Below are positions 9,663 to 31,263 of a stretch of DNA of 64,000 nucleotides, piece by piece. Below the pieces are notes generated by a model. That model saw only the letters and a program-made list of their open reading frames with translations. It was not told where the DNA came from and did no database searches. The translations under genes and the position numbers were made by a program. Within the stretch, counting starts at the first letter, position 1, and each line of letters begins with the position of its first letter. Source of the DNA: Escherichia phage LH2; sequence record OQ378934.1; one strand, 5' to 3'.

Positions 9663-10672
9663 TGAAAACAGTAATGAAAAGCTATTTTGGTAGTCATCTT
9701 TATGGAACTTCTACTCCAGAATCTGATGTAGATTTTAAAGAAATCTTTGTTCCTCCTGCTCGTGATATTCTTATCGGAAATGTTAAAGAGCATATGAGTA
9801 AAAACACTAACAACACATCATCTAAAAACACTAAAGATGATATTGACCATGAACTATACAGTCTTAAGTATTTCTTTAAATTAGCAGCAGATGGTGAAAC
9901 CGTAGCATTAGATATGCTTCACACTCCACCTGAACTAGTGGTTAAATCTGATTTACCTGATGTGTGGAAGTTTATTCAAGACAATCGTTCTCGTTTTTAT
10001 ACAACTAACATGAAATCTTATTTAGGATATGTCCGCAAGCAAGCTTCTAAATATGGTGTCAAGGGTTCTCGTTTGGCCGCATTGCGTGATGTATTGAAAG
10101 TAGTTAATCAAATCCCTGAGCAATGGGTTGATTACCAAGAAGACGGTTCCATTAAGCAGCGTCGAACTAAAGTTGAAGATATTAAGCATCGTCTTCCAGA
10201 GAACGAATTCTGTGAATGGGTATTCCATAATCATGAGAAAACAGGCCCACAAACGTTCTACACTGTGTTGGGCCGTAAATATCAGACAACGCTTTCTCTT
10301 ATCGAGCTTAAGCAGTCACTGAACAAATTAGATGCTGAATACGGCGAACGCGCTCGTAAGGCTGAAGCGAATGAGGGCATTGACTGGAAAGCTCTAAGTC
10401 ATGCTTGTCGTGGCGGACTCCAACTATTGGAAATTTACAAAACTGGTGACTTAGTCTATCCACTTCAAGACGCTCCATTTATTCTCGACGTGAAGTTGGG
10501 TAAACATCCATTTAAAACTGTTCAAGAGTTTTTGGAAGATGTGGTCGATCAAGTAGAAGCAGCATCTATTGAAGCTTCTAAGAACGGTATGCAGCAAAAA
10601 GTAGACATGGGTTTCTGGGATGACTTCCTTGAGAGGGTTTATCTTGAAAACCATCGAAGTTATTATAAATGA
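9659..10672 (+). CDS. Nucleotidyltransferase-like protein (Pol-beta superfamily motif)
   Basis: N-terminal GSHLYGTSTPESDVDF matches the GS...DxD nucleotidyltransferase signature; 337 aa. Confidence 0.6.
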   Translation: MMKTVMKSYFGSHLYGTSTPESDVDFKEIFVPPARDILIGNVKEHMSKNTNNTSSKNTKDDIDHELYSLKYFFKLAADGETVALDMLHTPPELVVKSDLPDVWKFIQDNRSRFYTTNMKSYLGYVRKQASKYGVKGSRLAALRDVLKVVNQIPEQWVDYQEDGSIKQRRTKVEDIKHRLPENEFCEWVFHNHEKTGPQTFYTVLGRKYQTTLSLIELKQSLNKLDAEYGERARKAEANEGIDWKALSHACRGGLQLLEIYKTGDLVYPLQDAPFILDVKLGKHPFKTVQEFLEDVVDQVEAASIEASKNGMQQKVDMGFWDDFLERVYLENHRSYYK

Positions 10673-10674
10673 TA

Positions 10675-10699
10675 GGGAGCCTTCGGGCTCCCTTTTTTT
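10675..10699 (+). terminator. Intrinsic terminator
   Basis: gggagc-cttcgg-gctccc followed by ttttttt. Confidence 0.65.
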
Positions 10700-10704
10700 A
10701 TTTC

Positions 10705-10787
10705 AAAAAATTTTCACAAAACAGTTTACAAGCATAAAGCTTTATGGTACTATACAACTATCAACTGATACGGATTTGGAGAATAAA
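10705..10787 (+). repeat. Promoter-leader cassette (PeSL-like), copy A
   Basis: gtttac at 10724-10729 ... tggtactatacaactatcaac ... ttggagaataaaATG; same core as copies at 12163, 37471, 56551. Confidence 0.6.
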
Positions 10788-11756
10788 ATGAAAACTGTAA
10801 CTATCAATAAGGGTATCTACTTCGGTAAAGAAATCTCTGGAACTTTTGAGCTCTTAGGCGAATGGTTCCCAGATAATGCTCCGGTAGATGCACAAGGAGA
10901 TGGTAAAGTTTTTGTTGAAATTGACGGTAAACGTCGCGGTGTTTGGGTTTACAAATCAGATATTTCATATGATGGTGTAAAAGTTGAAGAAGTTAAAGAA
11001 TCGTATGAAGATATGAAAACCCGCATTAACAAAAGATTTAATGTTATGGGAATGATGACGAATGGTATTATTAACGGAAATATTCGTTCATTGATTATCT
11101 CTGGCGCAGCAGGTATTGGTAAAACGTATTCTTTAGATAAAGCTTTAAATAAAGCAAATGATATTGGATACATTGAATATAAAAGCATTAATGGTAAAAT
11201 CTCTGGTATTGGTCTTTATGAACAGCTTTGGAATAATCGTGAAGAGAATTCTGTCCTTTTGATTGATGATGTGGATGTTTTCTCTGATATGGACATTCTT
11301 AATCTTCTAAAAGCCGCTCTGGACACCGGAGAGACCCGTAAAGTCTGCTGGAGCACTGCATCTTCTTACTTAGAAGAAAAAGGCATTGACCGTGAGTTTG
11401 AATTTAAAGGAACGATTGTTTTTATCACAAACGTTGACATTGACCGCGAATTAGACCGTGGTACTAAACTTGCTCCACATTTACAAGCATTAGTGTCCCG
11501 CTCGGTTTATTTAGATTTGGGTGTTCACACTAATGAAGAAATTATGGTCAGGGTTGAAGATGTTATTCTTTCAACTGACATGATGCAAAAGCGTGGTCTT
11601 TCTGATGAAGAAACTTATAAAGCATTATCATGGATGAAAGTTAATGTTAACCGTTTACGCAATGTTTCACTGCGTACTGCTCTTTATCTTGCTGACTTTA
11701 TTATGACCGACAAAAACGGTTGGGAAGAAATTGCTGAGGTTACTCTTCTGAAATAA
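10788..11756 (+). CDS. P-loop ATPase (AAA-like)
   Basis: Walker A GAAGIGKT and Walker B VLLIDDVD; start placed at ATG supplied by the cassette, not the longer track ORF. Confidence 0.65.
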   Translation: MKTVTINKGIYFGKEISGTFELLGEWFPDNAPVDAQGDGKVFVEIDGKRRGVWVYKSDISYDGVKVEEVKESYEDMKTRINKRFNVMGMMTNGIINGNIRSLIISGAAGIGKTYSLDKALNKANDIGYIEYKSINGKISGIGLYEQLWNNREENSVLLIDDVDVFSDMDILNLLKAALDTGETRKVCWSTASSYLEEKGIDREFEFKGTIVFITNVDIDRELDRGTKLAPHLQALVSRSVYLDLGVHTNEEIMVRVEDVILSTDMMQKRGLSDEETYKALSWMKVNVNRLRNVSLRTALYLADFIMTDKNGWEEIAEVTLLK

Positions 11757-12220: not shown

Positions 12221-12748
12221 ATGAACGCTAAAGATATTTTCAACTTGGTAAATTACAACGATGGTAAATTTAAATCTGAAGCACAAAGCAAGTTCTTTAA
12301 CGACATCTCAATCGGAGGTGAAATCACGGTTGATGGAGGACAAATTTACAAATCCCGTTGGAATTGGATCGTTATTATCGATGAGATTGGTATTGTAGAA
12401 ATTTACAAAAATACGAATAAAAATCGTACATTACACTGGTCTCGTGATACTAACGAACAGTACAAAAAGGATAAAGCATCTAAATTATCTCGTGTAACTC
12501 AAGAAGATATTGAGTTCATCAAGAAAGATATTTTAATGTATGATAACTTAATTGCTGAAGAGCAAGCTGTTATTGATAAATTTGACGAGATTAAAGCTTC
12601 TCGTGAAATTCCTGATTTTATGAAAGAATCAGTAAATGAACGATACACTCTCATTTCAGAGCGTATTGAAACTTACAAAAAGCAAAGAGCTGAACGCCAA
12701 AATACTCTTCGGAAGTTTGAAGAACGGTTAAAGACGGTACTCGCATAA
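12221..12748 (+). CDS. Hypothetical protein with C-terminal coiled-coil-like region
   Basis: 175-aa ORF following the cassette SD GGAGGA. Confidence 0.55.
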   Translation: MNAKDIFNLVNYNDGKFKSEAQSKFFNDISIGGEITVDGGQIYKSRWNWIVIIDEIGIVEIYKNTNKNRTLHWSRDTNEQYKKDKASKLSRVTQEDIEFIKKDILMYDNLIAEEQAVIDKFDEIKASREIPDFMKESVNERYTLISERIETYKKQRAERQNTLRKFEERLKTVLA

Positions 12749-12803: not shown

Positions 12804-13043
12804 ATGAAACAGTTGATAATTAAAAGATTGAATTTATTGATATGTTGTTTATGTGTAGTAGTTGCATATGGTTATTACGCAATTAATGATTATATGCATT
12901 ATAAAGATTATGATGTTACTGTAGTTAATACCATTACAGGAACACAAGGAAAAGGGTCTAGTTTATCGTTTATTGCCGTATATGAACTCAAAGACGGTTA
13001 TAGATTTAGGAATATATTTCCCCAGAGATGTATTCTTCAATAG
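12804..13043 (+). CDS. Small membrane protein (possibly the 5' part of a frameshifted gene)
   Basis: 79-aa ORF with hydrophobic N-terminus; overlaps next ORF in a different frame. Confidence 0.4.
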   Translation: MKQLIIKRLNLLICCLCVVVAYGYYAINDYMHYKDYDVTVVNTITGTQGKGSSLSFIAVYELKDGYRFRNIFPQRCILQ

Positions 13044-13210
13044 AAAAAGGTGATAATATTACTGTAAGTTTACGTCCTTTCGACGTAAAACAGACACTGT
13101 TTGATAATATTGTTTGGTTCTTTGGGATGGTATTAGTTCAATCTGTGTGCGGTGCTTATGTAGTCTGTTCAATCATATTCTGTGTATTTAGTAAAATTGA
13201 AATTGAGTGA
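13028..13210 (+). CDS. Small membrane protein (possibly the 3' part of a frameshifted gene)
   Basis: 60-aa ORF; hydrophobic C-terminal segment. Confidence 0.35.
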   Translation: MYSSIEKGDNITVSLRPFDVKQTLFDNIVWFFGMVLVQSVCGAYVVCSIIFCVFSKIEIE

Positions 13211-13217
13211 GGAAAAT

Positions 13218-14105
13218 ATGTCAGTAGTAATTAATAATGTCAATGCAGTAATTAAATCTTTAGTTAATAAAAAATCAAATGAATGGACTGTACTTCGCCG
13301 TGGAGAGCCAGATAAATTTTTTCATAGATTTAACCCAACTTTGGATTTGAATGTTATCGACAAAGATGTTCATGCTGAAATTTTAGATAAATTTAAAGTT
13401 GATATTGGATTTGGATTAGAAAAACATTTACAGCGACCAAACGGGTCTGGAATGCTTTTATCTAAACGCATTATGAAAGCCCTTAATAAAATTGGAGCGT
13501 TGTCTCGTATTAATGCGAGCGAAATCCTTCGTAATTATAATAAAGGATATGACCTTTACGGTCGACTAATGCCAAAATTATCATTCGACCAAATGATTGC
13601 GGATTTGTGGGAAAATCAACGACGATTATTAGCATTAGGCGCTCGATTAGCTAAAGGTCTAGATAAACAAATGATTTTTAAGACCAATAATACAGAAGAC
13701 CTTAAATGCTTTAAATTTAGTACTCGTGGAGATGATTATTACATCAGAGCTCACTCTACAGATTATGCCAATATGGGTCATCATCTCTGTTTAGCTTTTG
13801 AAGTTTTAAAAGAAGCCGGAACATTAGAATATGTGTCTGGTGCTAAATGTCCGATTGGTTCAAGTTGTATTTTAATTTATCGCCCAGATGAATCCAGTTC
13901 AACTAAATTGCCTACAAAACCTGTACCAGTTCGTAGTAACGAAAAACATTCTGAACAAATTGATTATTTTAATAAGCAAATTGAAGAGCTAAATATTTCT
14001 ATTCAGCAATATGATGATGAAATTTTCAGACTATCTGGATTGAGTAGTAAAGCTAAATCTGAGCGTGAAAAGTTAATTAAAATTGTTGATTTACTTAAAT
14101 CTTAA
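13218..14105 (+). CDS. Hypothetical protein with C-terminal coiled-coil tail
   Basis: Start at internal ATG after SD GAGGAAAA; heptad-like C-terminus ...QIEELNISIQQYDDEIFRL... Confidence 0.55.
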   Translation: MSVVINNVNAVIKSLVNKKSNEWTVLRRGEPDKFFHRFNPTLDLNVIDKDVHAEILDKFKVDIGFGLEKHLQRPNGSGMLLSKRIMKALNKIGALSRINASEILRNYNKGYDLYGRLMPKLSFDQMIADLWENQRRLLALGARLAKGLDKQMIFKTNNTEDLKCFKFSTRGDDYYIRAHSTDYANMGHHLCLAFEVLKEAGTLEYVSGAKCPIGSSCILIYRPDESSSTKLPTKPVPVRSNEKHSEQIDYFNKQIEELNISIQQYDDEIFRLSGLSSKAKSEREKLIKIVDLLKS

Positions 14106-14113
14106 GGAACACT

Positions 14114-15121
14114 ATGAAAACTCGTTCTCAAATTGAAGATATGGTTCGTAATGCCAGCTATACCCGTGATGTTATGACATTTTTGTGTGAAAATAATTTA
14201 GACCCCGATAAAGTTAATCGTGTTATTCATCACTTTAAGTATACGAATAGCAGTGAATGGGTGCGTAATTTTAGCGAAGCAGGGTATATTACGCAAATGA
14301 CGGCTCGTGAGCATCTCACCGATTTCTGTAAAACTATTGATTATAAAAATCCTCTATTTGTTCAAGGCGTCGGTCAAAGTAAGGTCGATTTATCATCTGG
14401 ATTTTTCAATCCAAATCATTATCGTATTGAATGGAGATTTATTGCTCTATTCCGTAAACAATTAAAACAAATTTTATCAACTGCGAGTCGATTAAAAGGT
14501 TCTGATATTAACTTAAAGAATCTGAAATTTGATGGTTATACTCTTCAGATGGAAGTAAGACCATTAAAAGAAAATAATAGAACTGCACGAATTAGCTTTA
14601 AACCTAATACAAAAAATTCTCTTTCAATTTGTGAATGCCTTAAATCGCAGTTAACAGAAGCATTTAAGTATATGGATGTTGTTGCTGTTGTTCAATCTAA
14701 GATTTTACCTCGTTTTGAGCGAAATTGGGAACATACAACAACATATGAACTTGATATGATCGTTTCATTTAAATACGATTTTTTGAGAAAGGACGAAGTC
14801 CCGCAAGAGAAAAAACCTGAACCCCAAACTAATTACTCATCAAACGATCCTAAATTTTGGATGTATAGCTCAAGCAATATAGATGCATGTAAACTTAATA
14901 AAGTGAGTTTTCTTCCTACTGAAAATTCAAATTTTAAACCTGTAGAAAAATGGCACGCTGACGCGATTGAGAAGTCTCTTAAGGCAGTAGATGATGAACT
15001 CGTTAAAGCGACCAATGAAGTGCTAGAAGCTGAAAAGGCGTTAGAACAAGCTCAGTCAAGGGTTCAAAATCTGACAAAGCAACGTTCTAAACTGAACAAT
15101 GCACTAAATGCACTGAACTAG
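14114..15121 (+). CDS. Hypothetical protein with C-terminal coiled-coil tail
   Basis: 335 aa; C-terminus ...LEAEKALEQAQSRVQNLTKQRSKLNNALNALN. Confidence 0.55.
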   Translation: MKTRSQIEDMVRNASYTRDVMTFLCENNLDPDKVNRVIHHFKYTNSSEWVRNFSEAGYITQMTAREHLTDFCKTIDYKNPLFVQGVGQSKVDLSSGFFNPNHYRIEWRFIALFRKQLKQILSTASRLKGSDINLKNLKFDGYTLQMEVRPLKENNRTARISFKPNTKNSLSICECLKSQLTEAFKYMDVVAVVQSKILPRFERNWEHTTTYELDMIVSFKYDFLRKDEVPQEKKPEPQTNYSSNDPKFWMYSSSNIDACKLNKVSFLPTENSNFKPVEKWHADAIEKSLKAVDDELVKATNEVLEAEKALEQAQSRVQNLTKQRSKLNNALNALN

Positions 15122-15150
15122 TTTACTTTGCCACAAGGATGTGGTATAAT
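15121..15150 (+). promoter_or_regulatory. T4-type early promoter
   Basis: gtttac 15121-15126; tggtataat ending at 15150; near-identical copy at 61069. Confidence 0.55.
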
Positions 15151-15178
15151 GTTCTTACTTTCTACTGAGGAGATTAAT

Positions 15179-16105
15179 ATGACTCGTAAACACTATATTG
15201 ATTATTTTGACAGTCTTATTACTAAACACCGTAATTATCAGATAGGACACAGAGCAGCAATCAATAATATTCTTCGTGATTTCCTTCAATATGTTGGACA
15301 GGAAAATCATATCTGTAAAGATACTCAAAACGCTTATTCTCATTCGTTAGGCAATTTGCTTGAATGGTTTAAACGTTCTCGTATGTTATCTTCTACTGTA
15401 GCTCGTGATAACATTGAAAACTTTATGAAGCCGAGCTTCATTAAATCTGAGACATCTATAACTGATTTGGTTGAATTTACTATTGTTAACGATGTTAAAA
15501 AGACCCATTTGGCTGATTGGTTATCTACCATTCCTGAAACTAAATTTGCTGATAAATTTGCTTGTCAATTCAATGACCAAGTGAATATGCTTTTTAAGCA
15601 TGCTCGTAAACTATTTACCGCGGGCGATGACCGTACAAATACAGTTCATGTTAAGGACTGGGTTATTGCTGATGAAGTAACACACAAGCCAGGTGGTTCA
15701 TCGGTATTAATTAATATCCAGGTTCCTTATTATTACTCACGTAATCTCGGCACCATGACAGCTAGAGAAATTAATAAGCACAACAAAACTATTCGTTCGT
15801 TGTCTTATAAACTCCGCATGATGCTAAAAATTATGGACGTAGTGGAAATGTATGATGAAACCGAAGATAATGGTTCAATGTTATACAGCTCACGCATTCT
15901 AATTAAACTGAAGAATCCTAATACATATAAGCCAGTTGTAAAAGAACCTAAAGTAGAAAAGGTTGATAACCTGAGCGAAGAACGCGAATATCTCAATGCT
16001 CGTTTGATTGAAGTTGAAGCCCAGATTGCCGAACACACCAAATTGTTAAAAGCTCTTAATGCAAAAGCAAATGGTTTACGTAATGCTATTGAGGTATTGA
16101 AATGA
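15179..16105 (+). CDS. Hypothetical protein with C-terminal coiled-coil tail
   Basis: Start at ATG downstream of the promoter with SD GAGGAG; C-terminus ...[33 protein letters not shown]. Confidence 0.55.
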   Translation: MTRKHYIDYFDSLITKHRNYQIGHRAAINNILRDFLQYVGQENHICKDTQNAYSHSLGNLLEWFKRSRMLSSTVARDNIENFMKPSFIKSETSITDLVEFTIVNDVKKTHLADWLSTIPETKFADKFACQFNDQVNMLFKHARKLFTAGDDRTNTVHVKDWVIADEVTHKPGGSSVLINIQVPYYYSRNLGTMTAREINKHNKTIRSLSYKLRMMLKIMDVVEMYDETEDNGSMLYSSRILIKLKNPNTYKPVVKEPKVEKVDNLSEEREYLNARLIEVEAQIAEHTKLLKALNAKANGLRNAIEVLK

Positions 16106-16419
16106 AAAAGCGTCTATTAGAAGATATTGCAGCTTCAAGTAATTCCAGTCTAATTAAAATTATTATGGCTGGTGAAGAAGACGATCTGGAAATGCGTGGA
16201 AAGATTCATGGTTGCGATGATTTAGACTTTAAACCTCCAGCTTGGGATGCCATTATGGCTATGGTTGAACGTCGCGAAAGGGCTTCTAAAAACGTTCCTA
16301 ATTGTCCTGAATGCGGTACTGAACAGGTTCAATTAGTCCATTGGCAGACTAGTAATCTTCGTTATAAATGCCGTCATTGCAAACACCGATTTAACCGAGA
16401 AGAAAATGACAAAGCGTAA
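16102..16419 (+). CDS. Zinc-ribbon protein
   Basis: CPECG...CRHCKH four-Cys arrangement; 105 aa. Confidence 0.55.
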
Positions 16420-29584: not shown

Positions 29585-31263
29585 AGAATTTTAAACTTAA
29601 TAGAGTAAAATATAAAAATATAATGTCAGTTGGTCAAAATGGGATTGACATTCAACTAGATAAGGTTCAAAAAACTCTTATTACTGGACGAAATGGCGGT
29701 GGTAAGTCTACTATGCTAGAAGCCATCACATTTGGGCTTTTTGGCAAGCCATTTCGTGATGTAAAGAAAGGTCAATTAATAAACAGCACAAATAAAAAAG
29801 AACTTTTAGTTGAACTGTGGATGGAATATGATGAGAAAAAGTACTATATCAAAAGAGGACAAAAACCAAACGTTTTCGAAATCACCGTTAACGGTACACG
29901 TCTTAATGAATCTGCCAGCAGTAAAGATTTCCAAGCAGAATTTGAACAGCTTATCGGAATGTCATATGCCAGTTTCAAGCAGATTGTTGTCCTTGGTACA
30001 GCAGGGTATACCCCTTTCATGGGTTTGTCGACCCCTGCGCGAAGAAAGCTTGTGGAAGACCTGCTTGAGGTAGGAACATTAGCTGAAATGGATAAGCTTA
30101 ATAAAGCACTAATACGTGAATTAAATTCACAAAACCAAGTGCTTGATGTTAAAAAAGATAGTATTATCCAACAAATTAAAATATATAATGATAACGTTGA
30201 ACGCCAGAAAAAATTAACTGGTGATAACCTTACTCGTCTGCAGAATATGTATGATGATTTGGCAAAAGAAGCTAGAACGCTAAAATCGGAAATAGAAGAA
30301 GCTAATGAAAGATTAGTTAATATTGTTTTGGATGAAGACCCGACTGATGCATTTAATAAAATCGGTCAAGAAGCATTTTTAATTAAATCAAAAATTGACT
30401 CGTATAATAAAGTCATTAATATGTATCACGAAGGTGGATTATGTCCAACCTGTTTGTCACAATTAAGTTCTGGTGATAAAGTTGTTTCTAAAATTAAAGA
30501 TAAAGTTTCTGAATGTACGCATTCATTTGAACAGCTTTCAACGCATCGTGATAATTTAAAAGTTCTTGTTGACGAATACCGAGATAATATTAAAACCCAG
30601 CAGACGTTGGCGAATGATATTCGCAATAAAAAGCAATCTCTAATCACGACGGTAGATAAAGCTAAAAAGGTTAAAGCGGCTATAGAAAAAGCATCATCTG
30701 AGTTTATTGACCATGCTGATGAAATAGCACTGCTTCAAGAAGAACTTGATAAAATTGTTAAGACAAAAACTAATTTAGTAATGGAAAAATACCACAGAGG
30801 AATTTTGACTGACATGCTCAAAGATTCTGGTATTAAAGGTGCTATTATTAAAAAGTACATTCCATTATTTAATAAGCAGATTAACCATTATCTTAAAATA
30901 ATGGAAGCGGATTATGTGTTTACATTAGATGAAGAATTTAATGAGACAATTAAATCCCGTGGTCGTGAAGATTTTAGTTATGCTTCATTTAGTGAAGGTG
31001 AAAAAGCACGAATCGATATTGCTCTTTTATTTACTTGGCGTGATATTGCTTCTATCGTATCTGGTGTTAGTATTAGTACATTAATTCTTGATGAAGTGTT
31101 TGATGGGTCATTTGATGCCGAAGGTATTAAAGGCGTAGCTAATATTATAAATTCAATGAAAAATACTAATGTTTTTATAATTTCGCATAAAGACCATGAC
31201 CCGCAAGAATATGGTCAGCATCTTCAAATGAAGAAAGTTGGTCGGTTTACTGTAATGGTTTAA
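29581..31263 (+). CDS. 46: Recombination endonuclease subunit gp46 (Rad50/SbcC-like ATPase)
   Basis: 560 aa; GTG start; Walker A GRNGGGKST, Cys hook CPTC, signature and D-loop region near C-terminus. Confidence 0.9.
   Translation: MKNFKLNRVKYKNIMSVGQNGIDIQLDKVQKTLITGRNGGGKSTMLEAITFGLFGKPFRDVKKGQLINSTNKKELLVELWMEYDEKKYYIKRGQKPNVFEITVNGTRLNESASSKDFQAEFEQLIGMSYASFKQIVVLGTAGYTPFMGLSTPARRKLVEDLLEVGTLAEMDKLNKALIRELNSQNQVLDVKKDSIIQQIKIYNDNVERQKKLTGDNLTRLQNMYDDLAKEARTLKSEIEEANERLVNIVLDEDPTDAFNKIGQEAFLIKSKIDSYNKVINMYHEGGLCPTCLSQLSSGDKVVSKIKDKVSECTHSFEQLSTHRDNLKVLVDEYRDNIKTQQTLANDIRNKKQSLITTVDKAKKVKAAIEKASSEFIDHADEIALLQEELDKIVKTKTNLVMEKYHRGILTDMLKDSGIKGAIIKKYIPLFNKQINHYLKIMEADYVFTLDEEFNETIKSRGREDFSYASFSEGEKARIDIALLFTWRDIASIVSGVSISTLILDEVFDGSFDAEGIKGVANIINSMKNTNVFIISHKDHDPQEYGQHLQMKKVGRFTVMV

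Follow-up and report, generated by a model that had tools for sequence, protein, structure and literature searches.

Three consecutive genes of Escherichia phage LH2 (OQ378934.1) raise the question of how neighbouring proteins came to end in similar tails, and what such tails might do. The genes, open reading frames (ORFs) A, B and C, lie in a stretch of 64,000 nucleotides (nt) of this record, which was analysed as a whole and is referred to as the window. An original prediction had read the tails as an oligomerization module shared by three otherwise dissimilar proteins, and had proposed either a hetero-oligomeric complex or a family diversified by domain swapping. The explanation favoured here, which we hold to be reasonably probable, is that the array consists of tandem, diverged paralogues, named nrdC.6, nrdC.5 and nrdC.3 in phage T4, that form an anti-defence family with a self-associating tail. 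The three ORFs agree in length and position with those first proposed. With their tails they are as follows (aa, amino acids).

13218..14105, plus strand: ORF A, 295 aa, orthologue of T4 nrdC.6; PHROG 2257; precomputed Pfam assignment PF26899
14114..15121, plus strand: ORF B, 335 aa, orthologue of T4 nrdC.5; Pfam DUF7235 (PF23882)
15179..16105, plus strand: ORF C, 308 aa, orthologue of T4 nrdC.3; PHROG 1435; precomputed Pfam assignment PF26897
13947..14102, plus strand: predicted tail of A, aa 244-295, with an invariant DDEIF.L motif (heptad score)
14939..15118, plus strand: predicted tail of B, aa 276-335, eight heptads (heptad score and modelled helix)
15968..16102, plus strand: predicted tail of C, aa 264-308 (heptad score)

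ORF A is 96% identical to T4 nrdC.6 over 259 aa and ORF B 91% identical to T4 nrdC.5. ORF C shares 60% identity with T4 nrdC.3 and is of a different allele type from that of T4. The match of ORF B to PF23882 extends over its full length (aa 1-335 against profile positions 1-307 of 307; 388.7 bits, cut-off 30), and the B-type genes of Gaprivervirus, Mosigvirus and Dhakavirus match the same family with E values of 1e-119 to 1e-128. In gene order across 27 loci, ORF B occupies the orthologous slot between nrdC.6 and nrdC.4/nrdC.3. A search of NCBIfam gave nothing above cut-off.

The C-terminal tails

Heptad patterning was scored with a COILS-type method over a 28-residue window, using a position matrix that approximates the Lupas MTK matrix; for this reason the scores were calibrated empirically and the published probabilities were not used. 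The terminal regions of A (aa 238-282), B (aa 279-335) and C (aa 255-308) score 1.57, 1.94 and 1.72 respectively, each in a single unbroken register that continues to the C-terminus, in B to the very last residue. The heptad-patterned terminal helices are 45-57 residues long. When the last 56 residues of each protein were shuffled 500 times, the maximum scores corresponded to p = 0.010 (A), 0.000 (B) and 0.004 (C). As these shuffles preserve composition, the order of the residues counts beyond composition, and the periodicity extends over at least four heptads in all three tails. A run of 40 or more residues scoring above 1.3 is found in 7 of the 107 non-overlapping ORFs of the window, and four of the seven are neighbours, namely nrdC.8, A, B and C; a Rad50-like ORF (29623-31263) provides an internal positive control. 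Weak database matches to prefoldin, SNARE and leucine-zipper families coincide with the tail segments.

AlphaFold2 (AF2) models were considered for A and B. The tail of B is modelled as a single helix (aa 276-334), with a block-mean predicted local distance difference test score (pLDDT) of 55-94 that rises towards the C-terminus. In A two helices make up the tail, aa 245-271 and 277-294, interrupted at SGLSS, and block means are 69-92 over aa 241-295. A disordered linker precedes the tail in both models. The proposal that each ORF ends in a heptad-like segment is thus upheld: COILS-type scoring rates all three tails as coiled (1.57-1.94, shuffle p of at most 0.01), and the tails of A and B are modelled as helices.

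Orthologues from Gaprivervirus, Mosigvirus and Dhakavirus phages were used to build profiles. Conservation in the weighted alignments is higher in the tail than in the rest of the protein, here termed the body, for A (0.66 against 0.48), B (0.49 against 0.40), C (0.81 against 0.74) and T4's further gene of the block, nrdC.4 (0.69 against 0.58). Between genera the tail of nrdC.6 is 60-69% identical and its N-terminal helices and β domain 18-31%, and in nearly all pairwise comparisons of orthologues no segment is better conserved than the tail. Positions a and d of the heptad are the most conserved, and positions b, c and f are also constrained (0.47-0.80).

Between paralogues, the order-specific similarity of the tails falls within heptad-shuffled nulls (z 0.1-1.9), and by this measure they have no more in common than coiled-coil character. 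With strong conservation inside orthologue groups and divergence between paralogues, each paralogue keeps a specific tail of its own. This bears on the idea of a common docking module, in which the tails would not pair but would each bind the same conserved helical partner, from host or phage, and so gather different bodies. Conservation within each protein peaks in the tail, surface positions included, and the tail is located at the extreme C-terminus behind a flexible linker, as a docking module might be. A lack of order-specific similarity between the paralogue tails is nevertheless hard to square with one shared site, no candidate partner was identified, and we consider docking of this kind improbable.

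Relationship of the bodies

The model of A (mean pLDDT 78.6) contains a helical domain (aa 3-150), a β hairpin-helix-β hairpin arrangement (aa 165-221) and a disordered linker (aa 227-242). In the model of B, helices (aa 4-126) are followed by strands (aa 132-162), a helix (aa 169-185), further strands (aa 190-219), the linker (aa 222-275) and the terminal helix (aa 276-334). Both models therefore present the same order of elements, that is a helical domain, strands, a helix, strands, a disordered linker and a terminal helix, a comparison of folds that rests on secondary-structure order because of the low confidence of the B model.

Profile comparison points in the same direction. BLASTP aligns ORF C with T4 nrdC.4 at 25% identity over 276 residues (E 1.6e-8), and alignment of the family profiles with hhalign gave the following probabilities and P values.

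nrdC.3 with nrdC.4: 97.7%, P 2e-12
nrdC.5 with nrdC.3: 79%, P 1.5e-5
nrdC.5 with nrdC.4: 75%, P 2.5e-5
nrdC.5 with merged nrdC.3 and nrdC.4: 85%, P 6.6e-6
nrdC.6 with merged nrdC.5, nrdC.3 and nrdC.4: 10.7%, P 0.0029

The alignments of the paralogues are collinear. They share a helix with the motif S-R-x-L-S-x-x-x-A-R-D-x-I-x-N-F, and a second aligned motif, F-R-x-x-x-K-x-I-L-x-x-A-S-K/R-L-x-x-G-D, forms the helix just before the β domain. As judged from these profiles, nrdC.5, nrdC.3 and nrdC.4 are homologous over most of their length. In pairwise alignments nrdC.6 reaches P 0.014-0.1 with the other three; its value against the merged profile (P 0.0029) beats all of 20 negative controls with unrelated window proteins, the minimum of which was 0.032, and is only suggestive of homology.

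Searches with the models extend the comparison. The models of A and B both match a 346-aa protein of Serratia phage CBH8 (A0A1Z1LY96) in BFVD, with E values of 1.7e-3 and 1.8e-5. That of nrdC.6 also matches proteins of 300-335 aa from T4-like phages of Pectobacterium, Enterobacter and Acinetobacter (BFVD; E 6e-7 to 3e-4, template modelling scores 0.41-0.50), so that the fold may be wider than the sequence family. The Foldseek matches of the B model in BFVD are mostly noise, as the model is poor. Profiles of all three families searched against the PDB returned either nothing or matches with E 0.27-0.68 to coiled-coil or tetratricopeptide repeat (TPR) segments only.

The description of the N-terminal regions as dissimilar does not stand, since homology links B with C (P 1.5e-5) and each of them with nrdC.4, and A keeps the same modelled domain order. 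With bodies that are related in this way, the shared tail would be mainly inherited from a common ancestor and not a module grafted onto unrelated proteins.

Two further candidates were considered and rejected. The first was nrdC.8 as a fifth member of the family (hhalign against nrdC.6, nrdC.5, nrdC.3 and nrdC.4, P 0.05-0.7). The second was an N-terminal SAM-like domain of tyrosine recombinases at aa 29-85 of ORF C; the matches lie below cut-off (Pfam E 0.075, 13.8 bits against 22.3; NCBIfam E 0.0013 and 0.011, 18 against 279) and are absent in six relatives. No such match was seen in T4 nrdC.3, Mosigvirus nrdC.3 or three nrdC.4 proteins.

Order, loss and recombination in the array

The window has a G+C content of about 34%, and 105 of its 107 ORFs are on the plus strand, which comparison with the annotated T4 genome identifies as the early-gene direction. 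Matches to the region 13000-16200, at 80-99% identity, occur in 656 phage records, which with few exceptions belong to T4-like phages of Escherichia, Shigella and their relatives, and the window is by these matches a T4-like phage of the genus Tequatrovirus. Relatives in the phage collection amount to 741 records for nrdC.6, 653 for nrdC.3, 555 for nrdC.5 and 554 for nrdC.4. When 1.8 billion representatives were searched exhaustively with HMMER and the nrdC.3 profile, the five matches were all T4-like, and no distant cellular relatives emerged at that sensitivity. A search for related loci in IMG/VR found only 7 and 13 close loci, and tblastn with Mosigvirus nrdC.5 found nothing beyond the four genera.

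The order of the array is fixed across the 27 loci, which span four genera of the Tevenvirinae. With nrdC.4 denoted D, it is A-B-D-C in most Tequatrovirus loci sampled, A-B-C in Mosigvirus and A-B-D in Gaprivervirus and Dhakavirus. In the last two genera an extra ORF of 71 aa, hydrophobic in its C-terminal half, separates the nrdC.6-type gene from the nrdC.5-type gene (L011 4233-4448, L013 4236-4451); Tequatrovirus lacks it.

The gene nrdC.4 is missing from the window, where a junction is located at the start of ORF C.

15179..15189, plus strand: deletion scar; ORF C opens with 11 nt (ATGACTCGTAA) as in T4 nrdC.4, followed by nrdC.3 sequence
15122..15150, plus strand: early-promoter-like site in the B-C spacer, TTTACT-17-TATAAT with extended TG; a consensus match only

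When the sequence is compared base by base with T4 nrdC.4 and nrdC.3 at their 5' ends, the crossover falls within an 8-nt microhomology, ACTCGTAA (15182-15189), and the B-C spacer of the window is identical to the T4 nrdC.5-nrdC.4 spacer. By this comparison nrdC.4 has been excised precisely and in frame, and the A-B-C array of the window is derived from the usual four-gene array. The same junction is common to 26 of 500 phage records. As a consequence of the excision, nrdC.3 now lies behind the early-promoter-like site of nrdC.4.

Other phages have lost or fused different members. In Salmonella phage Manna (L009 3215-4252) residues 1-268 of nrdC.6 are joined to residues 251-333 of nrdC.4 at DDEI/VNTP, and nrdC.5 is lost. 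A metagenomic protein (P0162) is a chimera of nrdC.5 and nrdC.3, and phage Sf25 (P0001) has an internal duplication within nrdC.6. In ACG-C40 (L027) nrdC.6 is the only intact member; in Pinarejo (L028) the nrdC.6 body is gone; SP18 has a split nrdC.5, and a further locus (L003) a split nrdC.4. The nrdC.6 annotated in the T4 reference (NC_000866; 275 aa) ends in a frameshifted peptide, with the coding sequence for the tail downstream and out of frame. All 295 aa are present in strain T4T, and the tail is also intact in the window.

The gene nrdC.3 exists as two alleles in Tequatrovirus, one (310 records) 95-99% identical to that of the window and the other (114 records, including T4 and T2) below 60%. 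Comparison of the two (window 15179-16105 and T4 locus L001, 6934-7860) gives 60% identity inside genomes that are otherwise about 95% identical. The first 75 residues are 85% identical, the middle 41-51% and the tail 78%; at the level of the alignment, divergence is concentrated in the body. The suggestion of a family diversified by domain swapping holds in part. Recombination between paralogues is evident in Manna, in P0162 and in the excision of nrdC.4, and is recent, lying on top of duplication and divergence.

These losses also bear on the proposed hetero-oligomeric complex, in which the three tails would zip into a heteromeric coiled coil and make nrdC.6, nrdC.5 and nrdC.3 (or nrdC.4) one assembly. 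The members of an obligate complex would be mutually dependent and always found together. In all four genera sampled, A, B and one of C or D do lie side by side in one orientation, only 8 nt separate genes A and B, and the conservation of tail positions b, c and f is what burial of more than one helix face would predict. However, losses of individual members occur in natural isolates, and phages exist with a single member or without one (ACG-C40, Pinarejo, Manna and the window); the tail of nrdC.6 is out of frame in the annotated T4 reference; the tails have diverged between paralogues; and the co-occurrence of the genes is no stronger than that of the syntenic nrdC.8, nrdC.2 and nrdC.1. In addition, plasmid-borne T4 nrdC.5 complements a deletion phage and suffices for the Dsr1 phenotype in that experiment (see below). 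The single losses and chimeras, together with this rescue, make an obligate hetero-complex unlikely. A facultative hetero-association of the tails, or a docking partner common to them, is possible.

ORFs A, B and C sit in a plastic early region between nrdC.8 and nrdC.2. The local order is nrdC.10, nrdC.9, nrdC.8, nrdC.7, the three ORFs, and then nrdC.2, nrdC.1 and nrdC. The upstream neighbour with a similar pattern is the following.

12221..12748, plus strand: nrdC.8, 175 aa, with a heptad-patterned C-terminal helix (score 1.57)

In a 2026 paper nrdC.8 is listed as down-regulated in cells that express DRT1. The gene nrdC.7, which encodes a membrane protein (133 aa in T4), is represented in the window by two overlapping ORFs, 12804-13043 (79 aa) and 13028-13210 (60 aa), a split due either to a frameshift or to a sequencing error. 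The nrdC.10 ORF (10620-11756) has 378 aa compared with 325 aa in T4, owing to an upstream ATG, and shows weak P-loop matches to AAA and STAND NTPase families, all under cut-off.

A proposed counter-defence role and comparison with known systems

The functional evidence for the family comes from nrdC.5. Neither ECOR17 nor MG1655 with Dsr1 supported plating of a T4 clone bearing compensatory deletions, and nrdC.5 supplied on a plasmid restored it (Srikant et al., 2022; PMC9391042). The evo 3 phage of that study may have retained paralogues of nrdC.5, as the extent of its deletion is not given in the accessible text and supplements. The T4 protein IPIII, to which we return below, also features in the same paper. 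Dsr1 has been reported in a 2026 preprint to sense the major capsid protein via a TPR sensor that it has in common with Avs7, and this sensor domain is reported in other defence proteins with different effectors (PMC12803255). Near the array, gene 49.2 inhibits OLD (PMC13096335), and the region thus holds other counter-defence genes. ORF B may share the counteraction of Dsr1, an activity known for the T4 allele only. As nrdC.5 defeats Dsr1, nrdC.6 and nrdC.3 are candidates for similar anti-defence roles.

In the explanation that we favour, duplication and divergence would have made the family, and recombination between the copies would then have reshaped it. Each protein would combine a fast-evolving body, formed from an N-terminal helical domain and a small β hairpin-helix-β hairpin domain, with a flexible linker and a C-terminal coiled-coil helix that evolves slowly. 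Each paralogue would self-associate through its own tail and so display, in two or more copies, a variable body with affinity for a host protein; the bodies may bind defence proteins directly. The host target of the nrdC.5 body might be the Dsr1 NADase defence itself or something on the Dsr1 pathway, and the other paralogues might neutralize other host defences. A constant tail with a variable body, combined with losses and chimeras, would explain why this locus differs between near-identical phages.

Self-association would most likely be the role of the tail. Several observations weigh against the favoured account. The tail of A is modelled as a helix-turn-helix and might fold back on itself rather than pair. 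Few charges occur at positions e and g, and the g-e' pairing rules favour neither homo- nor hetero-pairs. A, B and at least one of C or D occur together in nearly all genomes sampled, which fits a three-part complex too. The sequence link of nrdC.6 to the other three is weak (P 0.003-0.1), and the model of B has a mean pLDDT of only 53. Finally, only nrdC.5 of the array has functional evidence, and that evidence is a phenotype.

Another reading is that the genes apart from nrdC.5 are not counter-defence genes but act early in another way, perhaps by binding nucleic acid or host machinery, the array being an old duplication. Functional data exist for nrdC.5 only, no function is assigned to nrdC.6, nrdC.3 or nrdC.4 in the literature searched, and the weak SAM-like matches of the window nrdC.3 would agree with a role of this type. 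These matches are, however, far under curated cut-offs and are not reproduced in relatives. The genes are also dispensable in natural isolates, allelically dimorphic and located beside counter-defence genes, which is the usual signature of host-range accessory genes, and we regard the alternative as rather doubtful.

A narrower version of the counter-defence explanation, which seems distinctly improbable, would make the four paralogues matched decoys or blockers for related host sensors, with nrdC.5 binding the TPR sensor of Dsr1 and nrdC.3, nrdC.4 and nrdC.6 binding its relatives. The coiled-coil tail would here supply the multivalency to compete with an oligomeric capsid-protein trigger. If true, this would be the first diversified inhibitor family against one bacterial pattern-recognition sensor superfamily.

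The genes themselves are already annotated in T4, and what is new is the family-level picture and the idea of the orphan paralogues as counter-defence factors. Although no phage has been studied better than T4, its annotation assigns no function to nrdC.3, nrdC.4 and nrdC.6. Variation at the locus bears on the prediction of host range for therapeutic T4-like phages.

The nearest known protein to ORF B is T4 NrdC.5 (DUF7235), to which it is linked by its 91% identity, the same position in the array and the full-length DUF7235 match. In PMC9391042, T4 NrdC.5 is described by its phenotype alone, and its coiled-coil tail, domain architecture and paralogy to nrdC.3, nrdC.4 and nrdC.6 are not mentioned there; nor was a description of the tails or paralogy of the four genes found in the literature searched. 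ORFs C and A are orthologues of the T4 hypothetical proteins nrdC.3 and nrdC.6, from which the window differs in its non-T4 allele of nrdC.3, its intact nrdC.6 tail and its lack of nrdC.4.

DSAD1 (e.g. PMC10981675) may be regarded as a functional analogue of nrdC.5, as a phage protein that neutralizes a SIR2-type NADase defence; it differs in coming from Bacillus phages and in acting on DSR2 and not on Dsr1. No DSAD1 chain was among the matches when the PDB was searched with profiles of all three families.

A parallel within T4 itself is offered, by analogy only, by the internal proteins IPI, IPII and IPIII. In these the constant module is an N-terminal capsid-targeting peptide and the proteins are packaged in the virion, whereas the constant module of the array is a C-terminal coiled coil. 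IPI, IPII and IPIII are variable accessory proteins that are clustered in a plastic T4 locus, carry a short constant module and include counter-defence factors, an arrangement that the nrdC.6-nrdC.3 array may resemble.

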